Positions 4,012 to 43,419 of a DNA stretch of 43,559 nucleotides are shown here, in pieces; within the stretch, counting starts at the first letter, position 1; each line of letters begins with the position of its first letter. Made by a program: the position numbers and the translations under genes. The DNA comes from Chloroflexota bacterium (GTDB lineage: Bacteria; Chloroflexota; Dehalococcoidia; Lucifugimonadales; UBA3495). The notes under the pieces are model-generated. The model ran no database searches, was not told the DNA's origin, and saw only the letters and a program-made list of their open reading frames with translations. The stretch lies in assembly GCA_009840135.1 (NCBI GenBank), contig VXOH01000011.1:6559-50117 (forward strand), read 5' to 3'.

Positions 4012-6240
4012 ATGCCAGAAGAAGCCAGGATAATTTATACCGAAACGGACGAAGCGCCGGCGTTAGCCACGCACTCACTCTTGCCGATTCTCCAGGCCTT
4101 TACCAAGAGTTCAGGAATTGCGCTGGAGACCTGGGATATCTCGCTATCGGGGCGTATCATTGCCAATTTCCCCGACAACCTGACCGAAGCGCAGCGCATG
4201 CCTGACTACCTCCGCATGTGCGGGGAGCTTTGCCTCGAGCCCTCGGCGAACCTCGTAAAGCTGCCCAACATCAGCGCATCCATTCCCCAGCTTAAGTCAG
4301 CCATCGCGGAACTCCAGTCCAAGGGCTATGACGTTCCCGACTATCCCGACCAGCCAGCCAATGACCAGGAACGCGAAATCCAGGTGCGCTACTCCCGCGT
4401 GCTGGGCAGCGCGGTAAATCCCGTAATCAGGGAAGGCAACTCCGACCGCCGTTCTTCCACCGCCGTTAAGGAACACGGACGGCGCAATCCTCACCGGATG
4501 ATGCAGGACTGGCCGGAAGTTTCCAACTCCCGAGTGGGGCACATGTCCGGCAGCGACTTCTTTGGCAGCGAGCAGGCCGTTACCACTACCGAGGCAGGCA
4601 CGGCGACCATCGAGTTCGTCTCCGCCGATGGAACCGTAACCCCGCTGAAATACGATATGCCCCTGCAGGCGGGCGAAATAATTGACTGCGCCGTGATGAA
4701 CGTGGCAGCCCTGCGCGGGTTCTACGCCCGTGAACTGGACCAGGCAAAGGCCGAAGACCTGTTGATAGGCCTCCACGTCAAGACCACCATGATGCGCGTT
4801 TCGGACCCCATCATCTTCGGCCATTTCGTGTCCGTCTTTTTCCAGGAGATATTCGACAAGTATGCTTCGGAACTGGCCGAAGTGGCAGTGGACCCGGACA
4901 ATGGGGTAGCGGAACTCCTTACCAAGATTCAAGGGCTGCCCGATGACAAGCGGGCCGCCATCGAGGCCGACATTCAGGCCGTGTATGACCGTCGCCCCGG
5001 GTTGACCATGGTGAATTCGAACCGGGGAATCACCAACCTTCACGTCTCCAGCGATACCATTATTGACGCCTCCATGCCCGTTATCATTCGCGACGGCGGT
5101 CGGAGCTGGGGCCCGGACAACGAACTCCACGACACGGTAGCCCTGATACCGGACCGGTCCTACGCCACCATTTACCAGGCCGTCGTTGAAGACTGCAAGA
5201 TCAACGGGGCGCTGGACCCCGCCAGTATCGGCAGCGTCGCCAACGTGGGCCTGATGGCCCAGGCGGCGGAAGAATACGGTTCCCACGACAAGACCTTTGA
5301 AGCCCCGGGAAACGGGCGGATTCGCGTCGTGGACGCTTCGGGCAACGCTTTGATGGACCAGAGCGTAGAAGAGGGCGATATTTTCCGGATGTGCCAGACC
5401 AAGGACGCCCCTATCCAGGACTGGGTAAGGCTCGGCGTTGCACGCTCCCGGCTTACCGGCCAGGCTGCAATTTTCTGGCTTGACCCGACCCGGGCCCATG
5501 ATGCCGAGCTGATAAAGAAGGTGGACCAGTACCTGCCGGACCACGATACCACCGGACTGGACATCAGCACGCAGACGCCCCTTGAAGCGATGCAGACCAC
5601 GCTGGCTCGCAGCCGCGCGGGACAGGACACCATCGCCGTCACCGGCAACGTATTGCGCGACTATTTGACAGACCTCTTCCCCATTCTTGAGCTGGGAACC
5701 AGCGCCAAGATGCTCTCGGTCGTCCCGCTGCTCAACGGCGGGGGACTGTTCGAGACGGGCGCCGGCGGTTCCGCGCCCAGGCACGTACAACAGTTCGTCG
5801 AGGAGGGACACCTGCGCTGGGACTCTCTGGGCGAGTTTTGCGCCATGGTGGCGTCCTTTGAGCACTGCGGTGAAGTTTTCGATAACGACCAGGCCAGGCT
5901 CATGGCCGAAACCCTGGACCAGGGCATTGGCGAGCACCTGGAGAACAACAGGTCACCCTCCCGTAGGGTCAATGAGCTGGACACCCGGGGCAGCCACTAC
6001 TACCTGGCCCTTTACTGGGCCGAAGCGCTGGCGAAGCAGGACAAGGATGCTGCCATGCGGGCCCGATTTGCCGACGTTGCGCGCCAACTCCGGGAAAATG
6101 AGGATACCATCGTCCAAGAACTGAACGAAGCCCAGGGGCAAACCGTGGATATCGGAGGCTATTACCGCCCGGATAACGACATGGCCGCCAGGGCCATGCG
6201 TCCCAGCGCTACCCTGAACTCGATAATTGATGCGATTTAG
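4012..6240 (+). CDS. icd: Monomeric NADP-dependent isocitrate dehydrogenase
   Basis: 742 aa with [42 protein letters not shown] and [15 protein letters not shown], typical of monomeric IDH. Confidence 0.97.
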
Positions 6241-36313: not shown

Positions 36314-36534
36314 GACATCGTTACATCCAGCCTCCCCTATGACAGGAAAACTGTGCTCCGTTATCTGCCGGCATGACCGACAACGTGGGTTTTCCCTCGG
36401 CCTGTTCTTAACTGGCCCCTTAAACTCCGCTCTGCTTGCGCCTTCGTTACGGCAAAGAGTATTCTTGGCGCCAGCAGCCGAACTTTCCAATAACCCAACT
36501 AAGAGACCAACGGCAGGGAAATTCCTTACCTTCA

Positions 36535-37791
36535 ATGTCCAGCCCCTCTTCTTTCAACCTTCTACGCCGCAGCAGGCTCCGCTATCCGCTGGTCCGGATG
36601 GGCATCGCTTTACGCTACCCCGACTTTCGCGTCCTCTGGCTTTCTACCGTATCCAACCAACTGGGCTGGGGCATGCAGCAGGTGTTATTGGGCTGGCTGG
36701 TCTTCGAAATGACGGGCAACGCCGGCATGGTAGGGGCGATTTTCGCGGCTCGCTCGGCGCCAAACCTGGTGGTGGGACTGGTGGCCGGCTCCATCACTGA
36801 CCGCTTCGACCGGCGCGTGATAATGCGCATCTCCTGTATCGTCATGCTCCTTCTTTCGCTTCTGGCATCCTGGCTGGTTTACCAGGAAAACCTGTCTATA
36901 GTCCTTTTGCTCACGGCGGCGTTTCTGCTGGGCGCCGCCCAGGCCTTCTATATGACGGCCAGGCAGGTTTACGTTTACGACATCGTGGGCGGACACCGCG
37001 CCATAAACGGGATCGCCCTTGTTTCGCTGGCCCAGTGGATCGGCGGTATTATCGGTTCCCTGGCCACCGGGGCCCTCATTGCCTGGCAGGGTCCGGCAGC
37101 AGCCTTCCTGTTGATGGGCATCACCTACGGCGTTGGCACCGCGATTATGGGGCGGCTGCGTCATGCCGGTACCTCGGCCCCTGTCGAAAGGGAACCTATA
37201 TTCGAGAACCTTCTTAACTACTTCCGTGCGCTGAAGAACAACAGGGCGATGCTCAGCCTCATCATTTCCACGGCCGGCGCTGAAGTCCTGGGATTTTCCC
37301 ACCAGGTTATGCTGCCAATCCTGGCCAAGGAGGTCCTGGGCGTCGGCGCCTTCGGGCTGGGGCTCCTGACCGCTTTCCGGTTCCTCGGCAGCGCCGTCGG
37401 GGTATTTACCGTGGCTGCCATGGAACGCTTCCATCGCAAGGGTCTCATGCTGCTCTGCATCATAGGCGCTTTCGGAATTGGCGAAATACTGCTGGGCCAG
37501 TCTCCCTTTTTTTGGGTAGCGGTGGTCTGCGTCATGTTCATAAATATGCTGGCCTCCGCCACAGATATCCTGCACCACACTTTGCTTCAGCTCAGCGTAT
37601 CCAACGAGCAGAGAGGGAGGGCCATGGGTTCCTGGATATTCGGAATTGGCATGGCCCCGGTGGGACAGCTGGAAGTGGGCTACCTGGCCGGGGAGACCAA
37701 CGCCCGGACAGCCTTGCTGGTGAATGGGGCCGCCTTGATAGTCCTGGCGGTGGTGATGGGCTTCGCCCTGCCCCGGCTGCGTCGGCTCTAA
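36535..37791 (+). CDS. MFS transporter
   Basis: About 12 hydrophobic segments, motif A-like GSITDRFDRR, and EQRGRAMG. Start uncertain (ATG 36535 chosen). Confidence 0.9.
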   Translation: MSSPSSFNLLRRSRLRYPLVRMGIALRYPDFRVLWLSTVSNQLGWGMQQVLLGWLVFEMTGNAGMVGAIFAARSAPNLVVGLVAGSITDRFDRRVIMRISCIVMLLLSLLASWLVYQENLSIVLLLTAAFLLGAAQAFYMTARQVYVYDIVGGHRAINGIALVSLAQWIGGIIGSLATGALIAWQGPAAAFLLMGITYGVGTAIMGRLRHAGTSAPVEREPIFENLLNYFRALKNNRAMLSLIISTAGAEVLGFSHQVMLPILAKEVLGVGAFGLGLLTAFRFLGSAVGVFTVAAMERFHRKGLMLLCIIGAFGIGEILLGQSPFFWVAVVCVMFINMLASATDILHHTLLQLSVSNEQRGRAMGSWIFGIGMAPVGQLEVGYLAGETNARTALLVNGAALIVLAVVMGFALPRLRRL

Positions 37792-37827
37792 GTCTTCCCC
37801 CGCCTTTTCCATTCCCGCCCGATAAAC

Positions 37828-37880
37828 TATAATCCGCCCAGGAACCATCTACCCACAGACAATTTGTCACCCACAGACAA
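37828..37880 (+). promoter_or_regulatory. Putative -10 box and operator-like repeats upstream of the LLM gene
   Basis: TATAAT at 37828-37833. Direct repeat ACCCACAGACAA at 37851-37862 and 37869-37880. Palindrome GACAATTTGTC at 37858-37868. Confidence 0.4.
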
Positions 37881-37912
37881 CCTGCCCAGGAAAAATCCAA
37901 AGGAGGCGCGAC

Positions 37913-39106
37913 GTGATAACCAAGTTTGACAGTCTATATGCGGGCCACGTGGACATGGATGACGTCGGATACGGCGGCACCGCGGTTAATGACCGCTCCT
38001 TTACGGACGAATACCTGGCCACCGCATTCGACAAGGCCCAGGCTGTTGCCCAGACTATGGACCGCCTGGGCTACGACACCATGTGGATGGCCGAGCACCA
38101 CTTCCAGCCCGAGGGCTACGAGTGCATTCCCAACCTGTTGATGCTGAACGTCCACCTGGCCCATCTCACCAAGACCCTGAAGTTTGGATGCGGTTTCAAT
38201 ATCGCTCCAATGTGGAACCCCCTTCGGCTGGCGGAGGATTTTGCCACCGCCGACATCTTAACCAACGGCCGGGTTATTTTTGGCGTCGGCAGGGGTTACC
38301 ACACCCGCGAAGTTGAGACCTTCGGTTCGCCCCTCCTGGACCAGCCCGCTAATCGCGACCTCTTTGAGGAGCAGGTCGAGATTATTCTCAAGTCCTTCAA
38401 CGAGCGTTCCTTTTCCCACCGGGGCAAGAATTACACCATTCCACCGCGTGTCCCATATCGGGGCTACGAACTGGAAGAAATAACCCTGGTTCCCCGGCCC
38501 AAGTACCTGCCCGTAGAGACCTGGCAGCCCATCCAGAGCGCGACGCCCAGGGCGCTGGACTTCATGGCGAAACACGGCATCAAGGGCATGATCGGCGGTG
38601 GGGTTTCCGAGGGTGGCGCCATCTACGATGTAATCGCCGCCTACCGCGATGCCCTGGTGCGGGCCGGCAGGGAAAACGTGCAACTGGGCGAGGACCTGGC
38701 CATCGGTTTCCACTTCTTTCTGGCAGACACCCAGGAAGCCGCCATCAGGCAGGCCGCCAGCTATTACGAAGAAAATCTCAAGATGTTCGGCCCGCTGCGG
38801 CTGGTACGTTCGCTAAGCGACGAGCATATTGAGGCCATGGGCGACCCAAAGAGGGCTCCCACCGCAGGACTGCCCACCATAGAGCGCGCGGTGGAAAGGC
38901 AAGGCTTCCTGTGCGGACCGCCGGAGCTGATCGTGGAGCAACTGAAGGAACTGGAGGAGCAATATCCGGGGCTGGACCGCGTGGGCATGAGTCATCCCGT
39001 CGGCACGCCCGAGAAAGTGATCCTGGAGCAACTGGAATGGTTGGCCCGCGACGTAATGCCCTCCTTCAGCGCCAACGTTGCTGAACCCGTCCCTGCCGAT
39101 GACTAG
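37913..39106 (+). CDS. Luciferase-like (LLM) flavin-dependent oxidoreductase
   Basis: LGYDTMWMAEHHF, WNPLRLAEDFATADILTNGRVIFGVGRGY and GPPE. AGGAGG RBS before the GTG. Confidence 0.92.
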   Translation: MITKFDSLYAGHVDMDDVGYGGTAVNDRSFTDEYLATAFDKAQAVAQTMDRLGYDTMWMAEHHFQPEGYECIPNLLMLNVHLAHLTKTLKFGCGFNIAPMWNPLRLAEDFATADILTNGRVIFGVGRGYHTREVETFGSPLLDQPANRDLFEEQVEIILKSFNERSFSHRGKNYTIPPRVPYRGYELEEITLVPRPKYLPVETWQPIQSATPRALDFMAKHGIKGMIGGGVSEGGAIYDVIAAYRDALVRAGRENVQLGEDLAIGFHFFLADTQEAAIRQAASYYEENLKMFGPLRLVRSLSDEHIEAMGDPKRAPTAGLPTIERAVERQGFLCGPPELIVEQLKELEEQYPGLDRVGMSHPVGTPEKVILEQLEWLARDVMPSFSANVAEPVPADD

Positions 39107-39244
39107 TAGTCTAGGAACTTTGGAATGATAGGTTATGCTTCGCTCACCCTGAGCCTGTCGAAGGGCCGCCGATTCATGATTCGACAAGCTCACCACGAAC
39201 GGACTCCCGTTCTAACCGTCAAACCAATGTTGTTGGCCTGCTAG
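39103..39244 (-). mobile_element. CTAG-bounded MITE-like copy D (142 bp, inverted) carrying the REP-like hairpin
   Basis: CTAG at 39103 and 39241. CTAGTAGTCTAGGAACTTTGGAATGATAGGTT is the reverse complement of the family right end. The interior 39141-39203 is an inverted copy of 36113-36176. Confidence 0.7.
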
Positions 39245-39382
39245 TTTGCTCTTGAAGTATCGGGCATAACCGGCCGATTCCAGGGAAGAGAGACCTTGCA
39301 CACATCCAGGGTTTCCCTTCCCTTCGTATTTTGATTGATCCGGGCAAGAATCCAGGAAGAGAGGGCTGAGCAAACCCTACCG

Positions 39383-40096
39383 ATGGCGTCGCGTGGCGAA
39401 TTGAGAATTCCGGGTTGGCTTCCCCTGGTGGGCGCAGTGGCGGTCATCGCGGTGCTGGTCGGCTTGCTTTGGGTTAACCTGTCCAACTCCGGTCAACCGG
39501 CAGAAAACCCGGCAGCAGAGTTGGCGCCGCAAAAGAAGGTTCAGACGCCTCCGACAACCGTAGCCATGCCCGAGCCCACGCCATCTGTAGTCACGCCGGC
39601 GGGCACGACTCCCGCTCCCGACTTTCAGGGAATTGTCAAGTGGTTGAACAGTGAACCTCTCTCCATGGAGGAGCAGCGGGGCAAGGTTGTCCTGATAGAC
39701 TTCTGGACTTACTCTTGAATCAACTGCAAGCGTACCCTGCCGTATGTAAGGGACTGGTTCAGCAAATACTCGGAAAGCGGCCTTGTGGTTGTGGGAGTTC
39801 ACTCTCCCGAGTTCGAGTTTGAGAAGGACGAGGAAAACGTGCGGGAGGCACTGCCCCGGCTGGAAGTTTCCTGGCCAGTGGCGATGGACAACGACTTTAG
39901 AACCTGGCGGGCCTACGGCAACCGGTGGTGGCCCCGCAAGTACCTGATTGACCAGGATGGCACCATACGCTACGACCGTATCGGCGAGGGCGCATACCTC
40001 GAAACCGAGCTTCACATCCGAAATTTGCTGGCCGAAACAGGCGCGGATGTGACCGGCATACCGGTGGGAGGCGTGGTTTCCCCTTATTCCCGTTAA
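39383..40096 (+). CDS. Membrane-anchored TlpA/DipZ-like thioredoxin, probable selenoprotein (UxxC)
   Basis: ORFs 39335..39718 and 39785..40096 share a frame and are joined across TGA 39716-39718, reading [23 protein letters not shown]...[13 protein letters not shown]...WPRKYLID. N-terminal TM helix followed by a Pro/Thr linker. Confidence 0.88.
39732..39754 (+). promoter_or_regulatory. Putative bacterial SECIS hairpin
   Basis: GTACCCTGC-CGTAT-GTAAGGGAC forms a bulged stem. The apical loop starts 22 nt after the UGA and has G at its second position. Confidence 0.55.
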
Positions 40097-40189
40097 CTCT
40101 GACGTCGGGTTACCCATTGTCTCCTCTCCCAAAAAATTGAACAGCGATTTCAAGGCAATTTCAAATACAAACAAGCTAAAGGAAACCAT

Positions 40190-42151
40190 ATGCCTCAACC
40201 CTCTTCGGCACAGGAAACACCCATGATTCCCCGGCGGTTGCTATTCGGTAACCCGGATAAGGCCTCCCCACAAATAAGTCCTGACGGGTCACAGCTCGGG
40301 TTTTTGGCCCCGGTTAATGGTGTCCTCAACGTGTGGGTTGCCCCAGCGGAAGACCCGTCGGCGGCCACCCCGGTCACCCAGGACACCGGCAGGGGAGTAC
40401 GCCTTTTCGGCTGGACATACCGGAGTGACCAGATCGTTTATCTGCAGGACAGCGAAGGGGATGAAAACTGGCACATTTACGGGGTAAACCTCAGCAGCGG
40501 CGACATAAGGGACCTGACGCCCCTGGAGGGTGTCCAGGCCCAGATTCAGCGCGACAGTCATAAGCACCCGGACCGGATTCTGGTCGGACTGAATGACCGC
40601 GATCCCCAACTGCATGACCTCTACCTCATTGATTTGGAGACCGGAGACCGGGAACTGGTCCAACACAATGAAGGTTTCGCCTGGTTCGTCGCCGACGACG
40701 AGTTCAATGTTCGTTTTGCTGCCCGGCTAACCGGCGACGGCGGATCTGAGTATCTTCGCCAATCCGCTGATGGAGAATGGGAGAACGCCTTCACTATCAG
40801 CATGGAGGACGCAGTCACCACATCCCCACTGGAATTCAACAAGTCCGGCGAAGTGCTGTACATGGAAGACAGCCGGGGCAGGGACACGGCCGTCCTAAAG
40901 GCCATTAACCTGGCGAGCGGCGCCGAAACGGTCCTGGCCTCCCACGATCGGGCAGATGTTTCCGGTACGATGATTCACCCAACCGAAAAGACAATCCAGG
41001 CCGTCTCTTTCAATTACGACCGGAAGACCTGGCAGATATTGGACGAATCGGTGGCCGGCGACCTGGAATTCCTGGCAACCGTGTGTCCCGGCGATGTTGA
41101 GGTGGTAAGCCGCACCCTGGACGACGGCTGCTGGATAGTGGCCTATTTGAGGGATGACGGCCCCGTCCGTTATTACCGGTACTTGCGGGAGACAAAGGAG
41201 GCAACTTTTCTGTTCACTAACCGGGAAGCCCTGGAGGGTATGCCCCTGGTAAAGGTCCACCCGGTGGTAATTCGCGCCCGCGATGGGCTGGACCTGGTCT
41301 GCTACTATTCATTGCCCCTGGATGCAGACCCCCAACAAACCGGGGAGTTAACGTCACCGCTGCCAATGGCGCTTCTCGTCCACGGCGGGCCCTGGGCCCG
41401 GGACTCATGGGGATACAATCCGGTCTTTCAGCTGCTGGCCAACCGGGGCTACGCGGTCTTGAGCGTGAATTTCCGGGGTTCCACGGGATTCGGCAAGAAC
41501 TTCGTAAATGCCGGCAACCTGGAATGGGGTGCAAAAATGCACGACGACCTGGTGGATGCCGTGCAATGGGCGATCGGGCAGGGAATGGCCGACGACGGTA
41601 GAGTGGCCATTCTTGGCGGCAGCTACGGCGGCTATGCCACCCTGGCAGGCATGACTTTCACGCCCGATGTATTCGCCTGTGGCGTTGACATAGTGGGCCC
41701 ATCAAACCTGGTGACCTTGATGGAAACACTGCCACCTTACTGGCAGCCCACTATTGACCTTTTTACCAGCCGGGTTGGTGACTTTCGTACCGAGGAAGGC
41801 AAGAAGTTTCTGCTGGAGCGCTCGCCGCTCAGCCACGTGGACAACATCAAACGACCGCTGCTCATCGGCCAGGGAGCCAACGACCCCCGCGTTAAGCAGT
41901 CCGAGTCCGACCAGATAGTAAGGGCCATGCAGGATAAAGAGATTCCCGTGACTTACGTTCTCTACCCGGACGAGGGCCACGGTTTCGCCCGCCCTGAAAA
42001 CAGTCTTTCCTTCTTCGCCATAGCCGAAGCGTTTCTCTCAGAATGCCTGGGCGGCCGCTACGAACCGCTGGGTCAGGACCTGGAGGGCGCATCCATTACC
42101 GTTCCCGAAGGTGCCCAGCACATTCCGGGCCTGCTGGAGGCTCTGAACTAA
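40190..42151 (+). CDS. S9 family prolyl oligopeptidase/acylaminoacyl peptidase
   Basis: Beta-propeller N-terminus, VHGGPW, NFRGSTGFG, GGSYGG (Ser), GANDPRV (Asp) and DEGHGF (His). Confidence 0.94.
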   Translation: MPQPSSAQETPMIPRRLLFGNPDKASPQISPDGSQLGFLAPVNGVLNVWVAPAEDPSAATPVTQDTGRGVRLFGWTYRSDQIVYLQDSEGDENWHIYGVNLSSGDIRDLTPLEGVQAQIQRDSHKHPDRILVGLNDRDPQLHDLYLIDLETGDRELVQHNEGFAWFVADDEFNVRFAARLTGDGGSEYLRQSADGEWENAFTISMEDAVTTSPLEFNKSGEVLYMEDSRGRDTAVLKAINLASGAETVLASHDRADVSGTMIHPTEKTIQAVSFNYDRKTWQILDESVAGDLEFLATVCPGDVEVVSRTLDDGCWIVAYLRDDGPVRYYRYLRETKEATFLFTNREALEGMPLVKVHPVVIRARDGLDLVCYYSLPLDADPQQTGELTSPLPMALLVHGGPWARDSWGYNPVFQLLANRGYAVLSVNFRGSTGFGKNFVNAGNLEWGAKMHDDLVDAVQWAIGQGMADDGRVAILGGSYGGYATLAGMTFTPDVFACGVDIVGPSNLVTLMETLPPYWQPTIDLFTSRVGDFRTEEGKKFLLERSPLSHVDNIKRPLLIGQGANDPRVKQSESDQIVRAMQDKEIPVTYVLYPDEGHGFARPENSLSFFAIAEAFLSECLGGRYEPLGQDLEGASITVPEGAQHIPGLLEALN

Positions 42152-42360
42152 GGGTACGACTTCCGCCTGGCCCTAAGCTGGAGAGGTGAGTGTCCCGGGC
42201 AGGAGGGACCATTGACGCCAGGCGGGCAGAGCCCGGACTCCCGAAATGTTCATCTGCGGCAAGATCAAATCCTGCAATAGACTTCCCGAAGTGTAATTAG
42301 TACACCCGGCTGTCTGCATCTATGGAAACGGCCGATACCTTGCCGTGGATCAGCAAGAAA

Positions 42361-42391
42361 GGGCGGGTTTTTCCCCGCCCCTGCTTCTTTT
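42361..42391. terminator. Probable intrinsic terminator between convergent genes
   Basis: GGGCGGG-TTTTTC-CCCGCCC stem-loop with T-rich sequence downstream and AAGAAA upstream. Confidence 0.5.
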
Positions 42392-42420
42392 ACCGATTTT
42401 CCCTGAGGTATGCATCTCTT

Positions 42421-43419
42421 TCAGAGGTTGATGGCAGCCTCAGCGTATTCTTTTTCCTTGGTATAGACCTGGATTCGATGGCGCACCGCTTCAGCAACGT
42501 AAAGGCGATTCTCGTCATCAAGCTTGACTGAAATAGGCCGGTTAAACCGCCATTCGACTTCCATGTTTGTCCGCCGGCGAGCCTTGGCCACGTCGGGGTT
42601 GGCGTCTATGTAGTCCTGCACCCAGGGCGAAGGAGTCTCCGCATCGCCCACCAGCGAACAGATGAACTTGCCGTCGGGCTCGTAGATTTTGACCTGGTGA
42701 TTGCCCCAGTCTGCAACGTAAACGTCTCCGTCCGAATCCACGGCAACGCCGGTGGGACGATTCAGGTCGCCTACGCCGTCGGAGGTTTCCTTGAACTCTG
42801 CGACAAACCGGCCATCGGCAGAAAACTTCTGCACCCGATCGTTCTTCCAATCCGCGACATAAACGCTGCCGTTCCCATCCAGGCAGATTCCCCAGGGCTT
42901 GCAGAACTGGCCGGGTCCGCTTCCTTCTGAGCCCCAGCCACCCAACAACTGGCCCTCACCAGTGAACTTCTGCACCCGGTGGTTCATGCTGTCCACGACA
43001 TACAGGTTGTCGTCTGAATCCACGGCAAGCCCCGACGGCCCCCGCAATTGGCCGGCATCTGACCCGGAATCGCCCCACTTGTTCAGAAACTGGCCGTCCT
43101 TGTCCATGACGGTGATGCGGTTTAGATTCTCGTCGGAAACGTAGAGGTTTTCGTTGCTGTCCAGGGCAATAGCCATGGGCCAGACAAACTGACCGTCGGC
43201 CACACCGTATCGGCCGATGTCGGAGATAAACTCGTGCTCCAGGGTACACTTGCTGATTCGGAGGGTGATCTCGTCAACACCCCGATTCAGGACATAAACA
43301 GTGCCGTTGCTGCCCAGGGCGAAATCCATGGGCGCCAGGAATCCCACGCCGGAAGTTGAGTACATTCCGATGCAATGGCTGTAATCAAAGACTCGCCCGG
43401 CGGCGATGGTGGTTAGCAT
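42421..43419 (-). CDS. NHL-repeat beta-propeller protein
   Basis: Repeated GQF..P.GIA.D.DGNLYV.D..N.RVQKF units. GGAGG RBS. Confidence 0.92.
   Translation of the reverse strand: MLTTIAAGRVFDYSHCIGMYSTSGVGFLAPMDFALGSNGTVYVLNRGVDEITLRISKCTLEHEFISDIGRYGVADGQFVWPMAIALDSNENLYVSDENLNRITVMDKDGQFLNKWGDSGSDAGQLRGPSGLAVDSDDNLYVVDSMNHRVQKFTGEGQLLGGWGSEGSGPGQFCKPWGICLDGNGSVYVADWKNDRVQKFSADGRFVAEFKETSDGVGDLNRPTGVAVDSDGDVYVADWGNHQVKIYEPDGKFICSLVGDAETPSPWVQDYIDANPDVAKARRRTNMEVEWRFNRPISVKLDDENRLYVAEAVRHRIQVYTKEKEYAEAAINL

Follow-up and report, generated by a model that had tools for sequence, protein, structure and literature searches.

In proteins with the thioredoxin fold, the first residue of the CxxC motif forms a mixed bond with the substrate. 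Among the described membrane-associated systems of this fold, DipZ combines its thioredoxin part with an N-terminal CcdA-type multi-pass membrane domain, and the ResA/TlpA/CcmG(DsbE) proteins are reduced by CcdA/DsbD. Here we analyze a gene that very probably encodes a selenocysteine (Sec, U)-containing protein with a DipZ-type thioredoxin domain. The gene occupies positions 39383 to 40096 on the plus strand of a stretch of 43,559 nucleotides (hereinafter, the window), which comes from the genome of an uncultured Chloroflexota bacterium of the class Dehalococcoidia (assembly GCA_009840135.1, contig VXOH01000011.1, positions 6,559 to 50,117).

Selenoproteins with a UxxC motif are well documented in bacteria. 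Catalogues from 2006-2008 onward list peroxiredoxin (Prx)-like UxxC proteins (PF00578, PF08534) as well as "thiol:disulfide interchange" selenoproteins, and Prx-like and thioredoxin (Trx)-like UxxC selenoproteins are common in marine metagenomes, with abundant Cys homologs (PMC1794560, PMC2398784, PMC13188914). In one of these sources, the family "Prx-like thiol:disulfide oxidoreductase" is defined by a PF00578 domain with UxxC (PMC13188914). The window protein combines these two features and falls within that definition; its likeness to the published families is one of description. Unlike the Prx-like and Trx-like UxxC selenoproteins, the clade described here is DipZ-like by sequence and has a single membrane anchor. 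For Dehalococcoidia, a 2026 database paper reports genomes with 46-49 selenoproteins (PMC13326102). We did not find this clade described in the literature on selenoproteins of sponge Chloroflexi or on selenocysteine in DipZ, and supplementary tables or BSepDB may list it. The gene, accordingly, adds one more case to a class of selenoproteins already well known from bacteria and is not something new.

The region very probably encodes a genuine selenoprotein, which, as predicted from the sequence, is a type II anchored protein with one helix, a Pro/Thr tether and a DipZ-type thioredoxin domain with the active site Sec112-Ile-Asn-Cys115. Under translation table 11, the region yields two in-frame pieces, 39335 to 39718 (ending at the TGA) and 39785 to 40096. 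When the TGA is read as Sec, a single 237-residue product results, with U112 inside the motif DFWTYS-U-INC. An earlier note on this DNA, made from its letters alone, had described one frame broken only by a TGA at the first Cys of the motif, and re-translation bears this out: the 237-codon frame has a single interruption, the TGA at 39716-39718, which takes the place of the first Cys in the DipZ-type motif. The features of the gene are as follows.

39383-40096, plus strand: predicted coding sequence of the 237-residue selenoprotein (ATG at 39383, Sec codon at 39716-39718, TAA at 40094-40096)
39407-39475, plus strand: putative N-terminal membrane anchor, residues 9-31, hydrophobic and free of charged residues as read by eye
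39476-39610, plus strand: linker rich in Pro, Thr and Ala, residues 32-76, from the translation and the ortholog alignment
39611-40042, plus strand: predicted thioredoxin-fold (Redoxin/AhpC-TSA) domain, residues 77-220, from Pfam and the 2hyx alignment
39716-39718, plus strand: UGA probably read as selenocysteine (U112), first position of UxxC, TGA in 17 of 17 orthologs of the genus
39725-39727, plus strand: TGC, putative resolving Cys115 of UxxC, codon invariant in the 17 orthologs
39732-39754, plus strand: hairpin resembling a selenocysteine insertion sequence (SECIS), with stem 39735-39740 / 39746-39752, A bulge at 39748, loop CGUAU at 39741-39745 and two weak outer pairs
39734-39751, plus strand: frozen codons Thr-Leu-Pro-Tyr-Val-Arg, core of the SECIS-like element, with zero or near-zero nucleotide diversity

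The TGA is a conserved property of the gene. The source genome (3.45 Mb in 190 contigs, 93.3% complete, 2.25% contamination; the window belongs to its contig C95) belongs to a genus represented by 17 genomes, several of which consist of a single contig. All 16 others contain an ortholog with the internal TGA, at 66-73% protein identity, and the alignment block from DFWTY[ST] to [YF]VR[DE]W is present in all 17. A wider scan of species-representative genomes produced 80 loci, of which 29 have TGA at the active-site position (20 belong to the short form and 8 to a longer one from Dehalococcoidia, and one is in an Actinomycetota metagenome-assembled genome), 39 have TGC or TGT, and 12 have no match to the motif pattern. 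Homologs with either TGA or Cys at this very site, for which the earlier note had proposed to search, do exist. Short Cys forms of the same architecture are also present in the protein database, searched for proteins of 130-415 residues, at 58-72% identity and with lengths of 238-258 residues.

The TGA also persists outside this assembly, in four independent ones: contigs from four other sequencing runs (X2, X3, X4 and X8) have no change at 39716-39718. One of these runs comes from a different study, and its contig is approximately 95% identical to the window (40 differences in 887 nucleotides) at a depth of 39; another is an RNA library whose contig covers 39671-39843, which is not proof of transcription. 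The runs that carry this lineage of uncultured Dehalococcoidia are labelled sponge metagenome.

Both halves of the frame evolve as protein-coding sequence. Across the 17 orthologs, the median ratio of nonsynonymous to synonymous substitution rates (dN/dS) is 0.087 upstream of the TGA (35 codons; 122 of 136 pairs usable) and 0.074 downstream of it (108 codons; 134 of 136 pairs), with dS of about 1 in each case. Conservation of the protein is highest from the TGA to 39785, where the next start could lie. These low ratios in both halves, together with the conservation of the stretch between the TGA and 39785, rule out both a pseudogene and a separately translated C-terminal fragment. By these substitution patterns, the downstream half is under strong purifying selection and is translated in frame with an intact xxC.

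The earlier note had also implied that this lineage possesses a Sec machinery, and all four components are found. The source genome encodes a tRNA-Sec (66.2 bits against a gathering score of 47; anticodon tca by ARAGORN) as well as selA, selB and selD (537.7, 351.7 and 386.2 bits, each over the curated cut-off). Of 41 related genomes, 39 have selA over the cut-off, the 16 congeners all among them, and in the single-contig genomes G002, G008, G012 and G014 it lies on the same chromosome as the ortholog, some 40-46 kb away. Given that TGA ends 758 of the 2176 stop-to-stop frames of at least 300 codons in the source genome, it is an ordinary stop codon there. None of the observations that the earlier note had named as refuting its proposal came true, namely TGC or TGT in the reads, or a genome devoid of the Sec genes together with homologs that never have TGA at this position.

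Two other genes of the source genome provide local examples of Sec insertion. The selD gene (G000:C118:9898-10821, minus strand, locus L018) is itself Sec-containing (HCAG-U-AAK), with a hairpin of seven pairs and the loop GUU approximately 30 nucleotides after the UGA. A paralog with NHL repeats (L150:346-1848, identical to G000:C175, with the TGA at contig position 5998) is the second thioredoxin-fold selenoprotein of this genome. It has 500 residues, with DFWTYC-U-INC followed by NHL repeats, matches Thioredoxin_8 and NHL, and is without a signal sequence; copies with one TGA are present in at least 26 of the 41 related genomes. Its SECIS is a clean seven-pair stem with the loop AGUU. The loops of selD and the NHL paralog both contain G-U, and their spacing from the UGA is slightly larger than in the 237-residue gene.

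Comparison with the described systems leaves little doubt about the fold. Residues 77-220 align to the C-terminal fragment of Mycobacterium tuberculosis DipZ (2hyx) with E = 1.5e-48, with YSCINC of the latter in register with YS-U-INC, and this match settles the fold. The Pfam matches of the domain (AhpC-TSA 2.6e-13, Redoxin 1.2e-12, Thioredoxin_8 6.1e-9) are each over the cut-off, and in the superfamily comparison it scores 50.4 and 48.3 bits against cut-offs of 26 and 26.6 (PF08534 and PF00578), with the motif at the active-site position. DipZ itself (2hyx/5cyy) has Cys where the window protein would have Sec, and differs further in its multi-pass membrane part, given that the window protein has one hydrophobic segment and no match to PF02683. 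The window protein also differs from the DipZ-like paralogs with a C-terminal Thioredoxin_10 domain: it has no match to PF17991 and ends at residue 237, only 17 residues beyond the thioredoxin domain. Both the paralog L149:884-2437 and the second Sec clade considered below (L080:2791-4008) have Thioredoxin_10. Judged by its domain content, then, the window protein is not DipZ, being devoid of both the CcdA-type and the Thioredoxin_10 domains.

Like ResA, TlpA and CcmG(DsbE), the window protein has an N-terminal anchor, a thioredoxin-fold domain that probably faces outward and a motif of the CxxC type. Its scores with the respective NCBIfam models are far under the cut-offs (ResA 67.5 of 170, DsbE 26.9 of 123, TlpA 18.3 of 230, WAxxUGC_long 22.5 of 300), and no NCBIfam model, the curated selenoprotein models included, exceeds its cut-off for the window protein, the NHL paralog or the second Sec clade.

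The start of the protein was placed at 39383, the only ATG present, which makes it the likely initiation codon; no good Shine-Dalgarno or sigma-70 match was found for this start. A scan for promoters and terminators near the gene yielded no promoter-like sites and one terminator-like site, on the minus strand within the gene, which is below the shuffle mean. By eye, Arg4 and Arg8 precede the hydrophobic run and Glu41 and Glu46 come after it, and residues 38-79 contain 11 Pro and 7 Thr. Segment 9-31 stays hydrophobic across all 17 orthologs; the linker differs in length between them. In a related strain represented by run X3, there is a 12-nucleotide in-frame insertion behind 39497, in the Pro/Thr linker, along with many substitutions in the same part, and no substitutions at all from 39689 to 39786.

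The earlier note had placed a SECIS-like hairpin at 39732-39754, with the loop CGUAU beginning 22 nucleotides after the UGA. This hairpin can be drawn as described, with a free energy of -5.7 kcal/mol. The published constraints on a bacterial SECIS (bSECIS) are an apical loop of 3-9 nucleotides, a G in the first two loop positions, a distance of 16-37 nucleotides from the UGA and a minimum free energy (MFE) of -7.5 kcal/mol or lower (PMC13188914). The loop of five nucleotides, the G at loop position 2, followed by U, and the spacing of 22 nucleotides are all within these ranges. As in the bSECIS consensus, the element lies inside the coding sequence just 3' of the UGA; unlike it, the stem here consists of four plus two pairs split by a bulge, and those of selD and the NHL paralog in the same genome have seven pairs.

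The main evidence for an RNA element comes from synonymous sites. Of the codons +6 to +11 after the UGA, five are identical in 17 of 17 species and the sixth has a Tyr-to-Phe change in one; this frozen stretch, 39734-39751, corresponds to nucleotides 18-35 numbered from the UGA, and its Thr, Leu, Pro, Val and Arg codons are four- to sixfold degenerate. Among codons for invariant residues with at least fourfold degeneracy, those with zero diversity account for five of six within 13 codons of the UGA and for none of 45 elsewhere. Over all degenerate codons, the difference is significant by the Mann-Whitney test (p = 3.7e-4), and a run of five zero-diversity codons appeared in 5 of 20000 permutations. 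Because the species are related, a Cys paralog present in 16 of these genomes (DFWTYTCVNCIRTFPYLKLW) served as a matched control; it varies synonymously at all six codons, with a diversity of 0.12-0.49. It is this conservation, that is, a core invariant in 17 species along with variation in the Cys paralog, and not the energy, that places the hairpin above chance.

The frozen bases coincide with the stem and loop of the hairpin, and the RNAalifold consensus keeps a four-pair core. In a comparison of 28 distinct Sec-form sequences belonging to three clades, 87.5% of the cells pair, and sliding the partner gives at most 47.6%. Double changes occur at two pairs (CG to GC in four sequences and CG to UA in one), and there are single changes that keep the pair (GU to AU in one sequence and CG to UG in another); the covariation score of 0.140, against a shuffle mean of 0.064, was reached in none of 500 shuffles. 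Judging by the codon conservation, a functional RNA element certainly lies over 39734-39751. Most likely, this element is a SECIS in compact form, and the hairpin 39732-39754 is the candidate for binding SelB. For the hairpin proposed in the earlier note, the loop size, the position of the G and the spacing, together with the frozen synonymous sites found here, speak for a SECIS; covariation adds slight support, and the energy is weaker than the published threshold.

Several observations on the hairpin and on the redox environment of the protein weigh against the interpretation as a whole. The energy of -5.7 kcal/mol is weaker than the bSECIS threshold. The MFE fold of the window's own 60 nucleotides (-12.1 kcal/mol, z = -0.05, with 91 of 200 shuffles equal or better) is a structure other than this hairpin and is unconserved in other species; we accordingly rejected the folding energy as support for the hairpin. 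Rfam gave no match at E up to 10 within 39600-39900. There is no covariation within the genus, where the hairpin is invariant; the covariation noted above comes from few, related sequences of two other clades, and the structure was derived from the same sequences. The second Sec clade does not form the two inner pairs (6-7 of 28 unpaired). With respect to redox partners, CcdA/DsbD (PF02683) is found in 0 of 17 genomes of the genus, which sets the window protein apart from the ResA/TlpA/CcmG(DsbE) proteins and their reductant, and DsbD_2, VKOR and DsbB were not found in the source genome (93% complete). Despite the lack of a detectable CcdA/DsbD, several DipZ-like thioredoxin proteins are exported in this genus.

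The mechanism that we propose is the following. SelB with Sec-tRNA(Sec) would be recruited to the UGA by the compact in-gene hairpin with its G-U-containing apical loop, and the inserted Sec would stand where a CxxC motif has its N-terminal, attacking cysteine. Once mature, the domain would most likely face the outside of the cytoplasmic membrane and serve as a thiol:disulfide oxidoreductase, with exported proteins or small oxidised molecules as its substrates; its oxidised state would be a selenenylsulfide with Cys115. Both the reductase direction and the substrates are putative. The earlier note had pictured precisely a Sec-containing thiol-disulfide oxidoreductase of 237 residues, and the conserved TGA, the Sec/Cys pairs, the selection, the machinery and the fold all support this, with the substrates presumed.

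How the UGA is decoded could be explained in other ways. The most serious alternative accepts Sec insertion and holds that SelB is recruited by another register, in which the Pro CCG and Arg codons would form pairs like those of the NHL paralog, or by a larger fold that includes the frozen bases. The hairpin 39732-39754 is weaker than the bSECIS energy threshold, the second Sec clade loses the inner pairs and allows an alternative six-pair stem in two members, and the strong SECIS of the NHL paralog uses the equivalent CCG/CGG pairing, all of which would fit such a scheme. We nevertheless consider it unlikely given that the frozen bases match the stem and loop of the hairpin exactly and that the alternative register (columns 23-28 with 33-38) has no covariation, pairs in 70.8% and breaks two pairs in 22 of 28 sequences; this register was rejected. 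Decoding without selenium, be it near-cognate readthrough with Trp, Cys or Arg, or termination yielding a 111-residue membrane peptide with or without separate downstream translation, is very improbable. The weak energy of the hairpin would be compatible with it, and GTG at 39785 does open a 103-residue frame. However, the codons from the TGA to 39785 encode residues that vary little or not at all, and the downstream dN/dS points to in-frame translation; the redox motif would be absent from a downstream-only product; the active site of a thioredoxin fold is killed when Trp or Arg takes the place of its nucleophile; and the genome contains the complete Sec machinery along with other Sec genes that share this trait. 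As for the TGA being the mark of a pseudogene or an assembly or sequencing error, as the splitting of the frame by standard gene calling might suggest, the chance is negligible in view of the same TGA in 17 of 17 genomes of the genus, 29 public loci and four other assemblies, and of the purifying selection on both halves.

The topology of the protein poses a separate question. Lipobox-like signals (LALAC, LAGC) are present in relatives from this genome and this class, and on this ground the family is exported; the window protein would be a minimal, anchored version of it. The Arg residues before the helix and the Glu residues after it suggest an N-in, C-out orientation, which would put the thioredoxin domain outside. 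A real selenoprotein with the thioredoxin domain in the cytoplasm (N-out, C-in), served by cytoplasmic reductants and perhaps working with the NHL-repeat neighbor, would account for the lack of a detected CcdA/DsbD, DsbB or VKOR that could serve an outward domain. It would also agree with the neighborhood of the gene, where 19 of 20 related loci have an NHL-repeat gene that lacks a signal sequence, and with the existence of thioredoxin-NHL fusions, the cytoplasmic Sec paralog of the source genome among them. We regard this arrangement as improbable, even if less so than decoding without selenium, because the charges flanking the helix and the lipobox-like signals of the closest paralogs contradict it, the synteny comes from close relatives only, and the NHL gene is on the other strand. 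Moreover, a Pro/Thr tether is typical of exported domains, and the relatives DipZ, ResA and TlpA act outside the cytoplasm. We therefore retain the anchored selenoprotein with a putative outward-facing thioredoxin domain as the preferred interpretation.

The gene order around the Sec gene (window positions 36436-43419) is MFS transporter, luciferase-like monooxygenase, Sec gene, S9 peptidase and NHL-repeat protein (minus strand). It is kept in 18-20 of 20 related loci, which, coming from close relatives, carries little functional weight; two loci have no S9 peptidase, and there the NHL gene directly adjoins the Sec gene. We do not claim the neighboring NHL-repeat protein as a partner, as it is without a signal sequence and on the opposite strand.

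The Sec form appears in more than one part of the family tree. A tree was built by a quick method from 126 loci (L023-L148), which gave 114 domains and 98 distinct rows after 12 loci without a clean motif or with stops and 16 duplicates had been left out; a third paralog group of the genus is outside this comparison. In this tree of 98 domains, the short Sec form is one clade (23 rows; support 98 in the Shimodaira-Hasegawa-like approximate likelihood ratio test, SH-aLRT). The longer Sec form is a separate clade (8 rows, SH-aLRT 99) beside Cys forms of Dehalococcoidia, and the Actinomycetota sequence stands apart on a long branch. By parsimony, three changes between the Cys and Sec states are needed, of which the well-supported branches force only one. 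The second Sec clade consists of L080:2791-4008 and seven further loci (L074, L077, L078 and L081-L084) with TGA at the same site; the L080 form has 405 residues and is lipoprotein-like, with an LAGC signal and a C-terminal Thioredoxin_10 domain. In the Actinomycetota genome, the TGA (L119:3103-3105) is at the same active-site position, in DFWTYS-U-INC.

The sequence Thr-Leu-Pro-Tyr-x-Arg-Asp is conserved throughout the thioredoxin family, and a CCC/GGG stem can be drawn in some Cys forms. It is tempting to speculate that the codons of the family pre-pair and formed a proto-SECIS, which would explain two or three switches from Cys to Sec, that the hairpin represents a compact class of bSECIS lying below the search thresholds, and that the enzyme works outside the cytoplasm with a recycling route of its own yet to be recognized. 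Taken together, we consider this scenario doubtful, with a probability no greater than that of the alternative pairing register.

Further candidate selenoproteins in the source genome emerged from a regular-expression scan for UxxC and CxxU. Its 444 strict matches are mostly noise, and only recurrent motifs were kept as leads: four recurrent U-GSC contexts (G000 contigs C1:26799, C2 on the minus strand, C4:1719 and C114:7789), tandem candidate genes with FFxATx-U-xVC (C187:37732 and 38462) and two candidate genes with TNPG-U-xxC (C61 on the minus strand and C49:1667). The remaining matches, about 430, resemble noise.

In practical terms, gene callers that treat TGA as a stop would split or truncate this gene, and the correct reading restores its active-site residue. 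The frozen stretch of 18 nucleotides would be a clean example of a very small SECIS, of the kind that is missed by model searches with energy thresholds. Given that no membrane redox relay was found, the question arises how exported thiol or selenol enzymes are recycled in these bacteria. Neither the small SECIS nor the relay question changes the general picture of bacterial selenoproteomes. The gene adds a DipZ-type, membrane-anchored form to the UxxC selenoproteins, and an uncultured genus of Dehalococcoidia, encountered in sponge-metagenome runs, appears to use selenium in several redox proteins. Selenium at the outer face of the membrane would be a plausible trait against oxidative conditions in its habitat.

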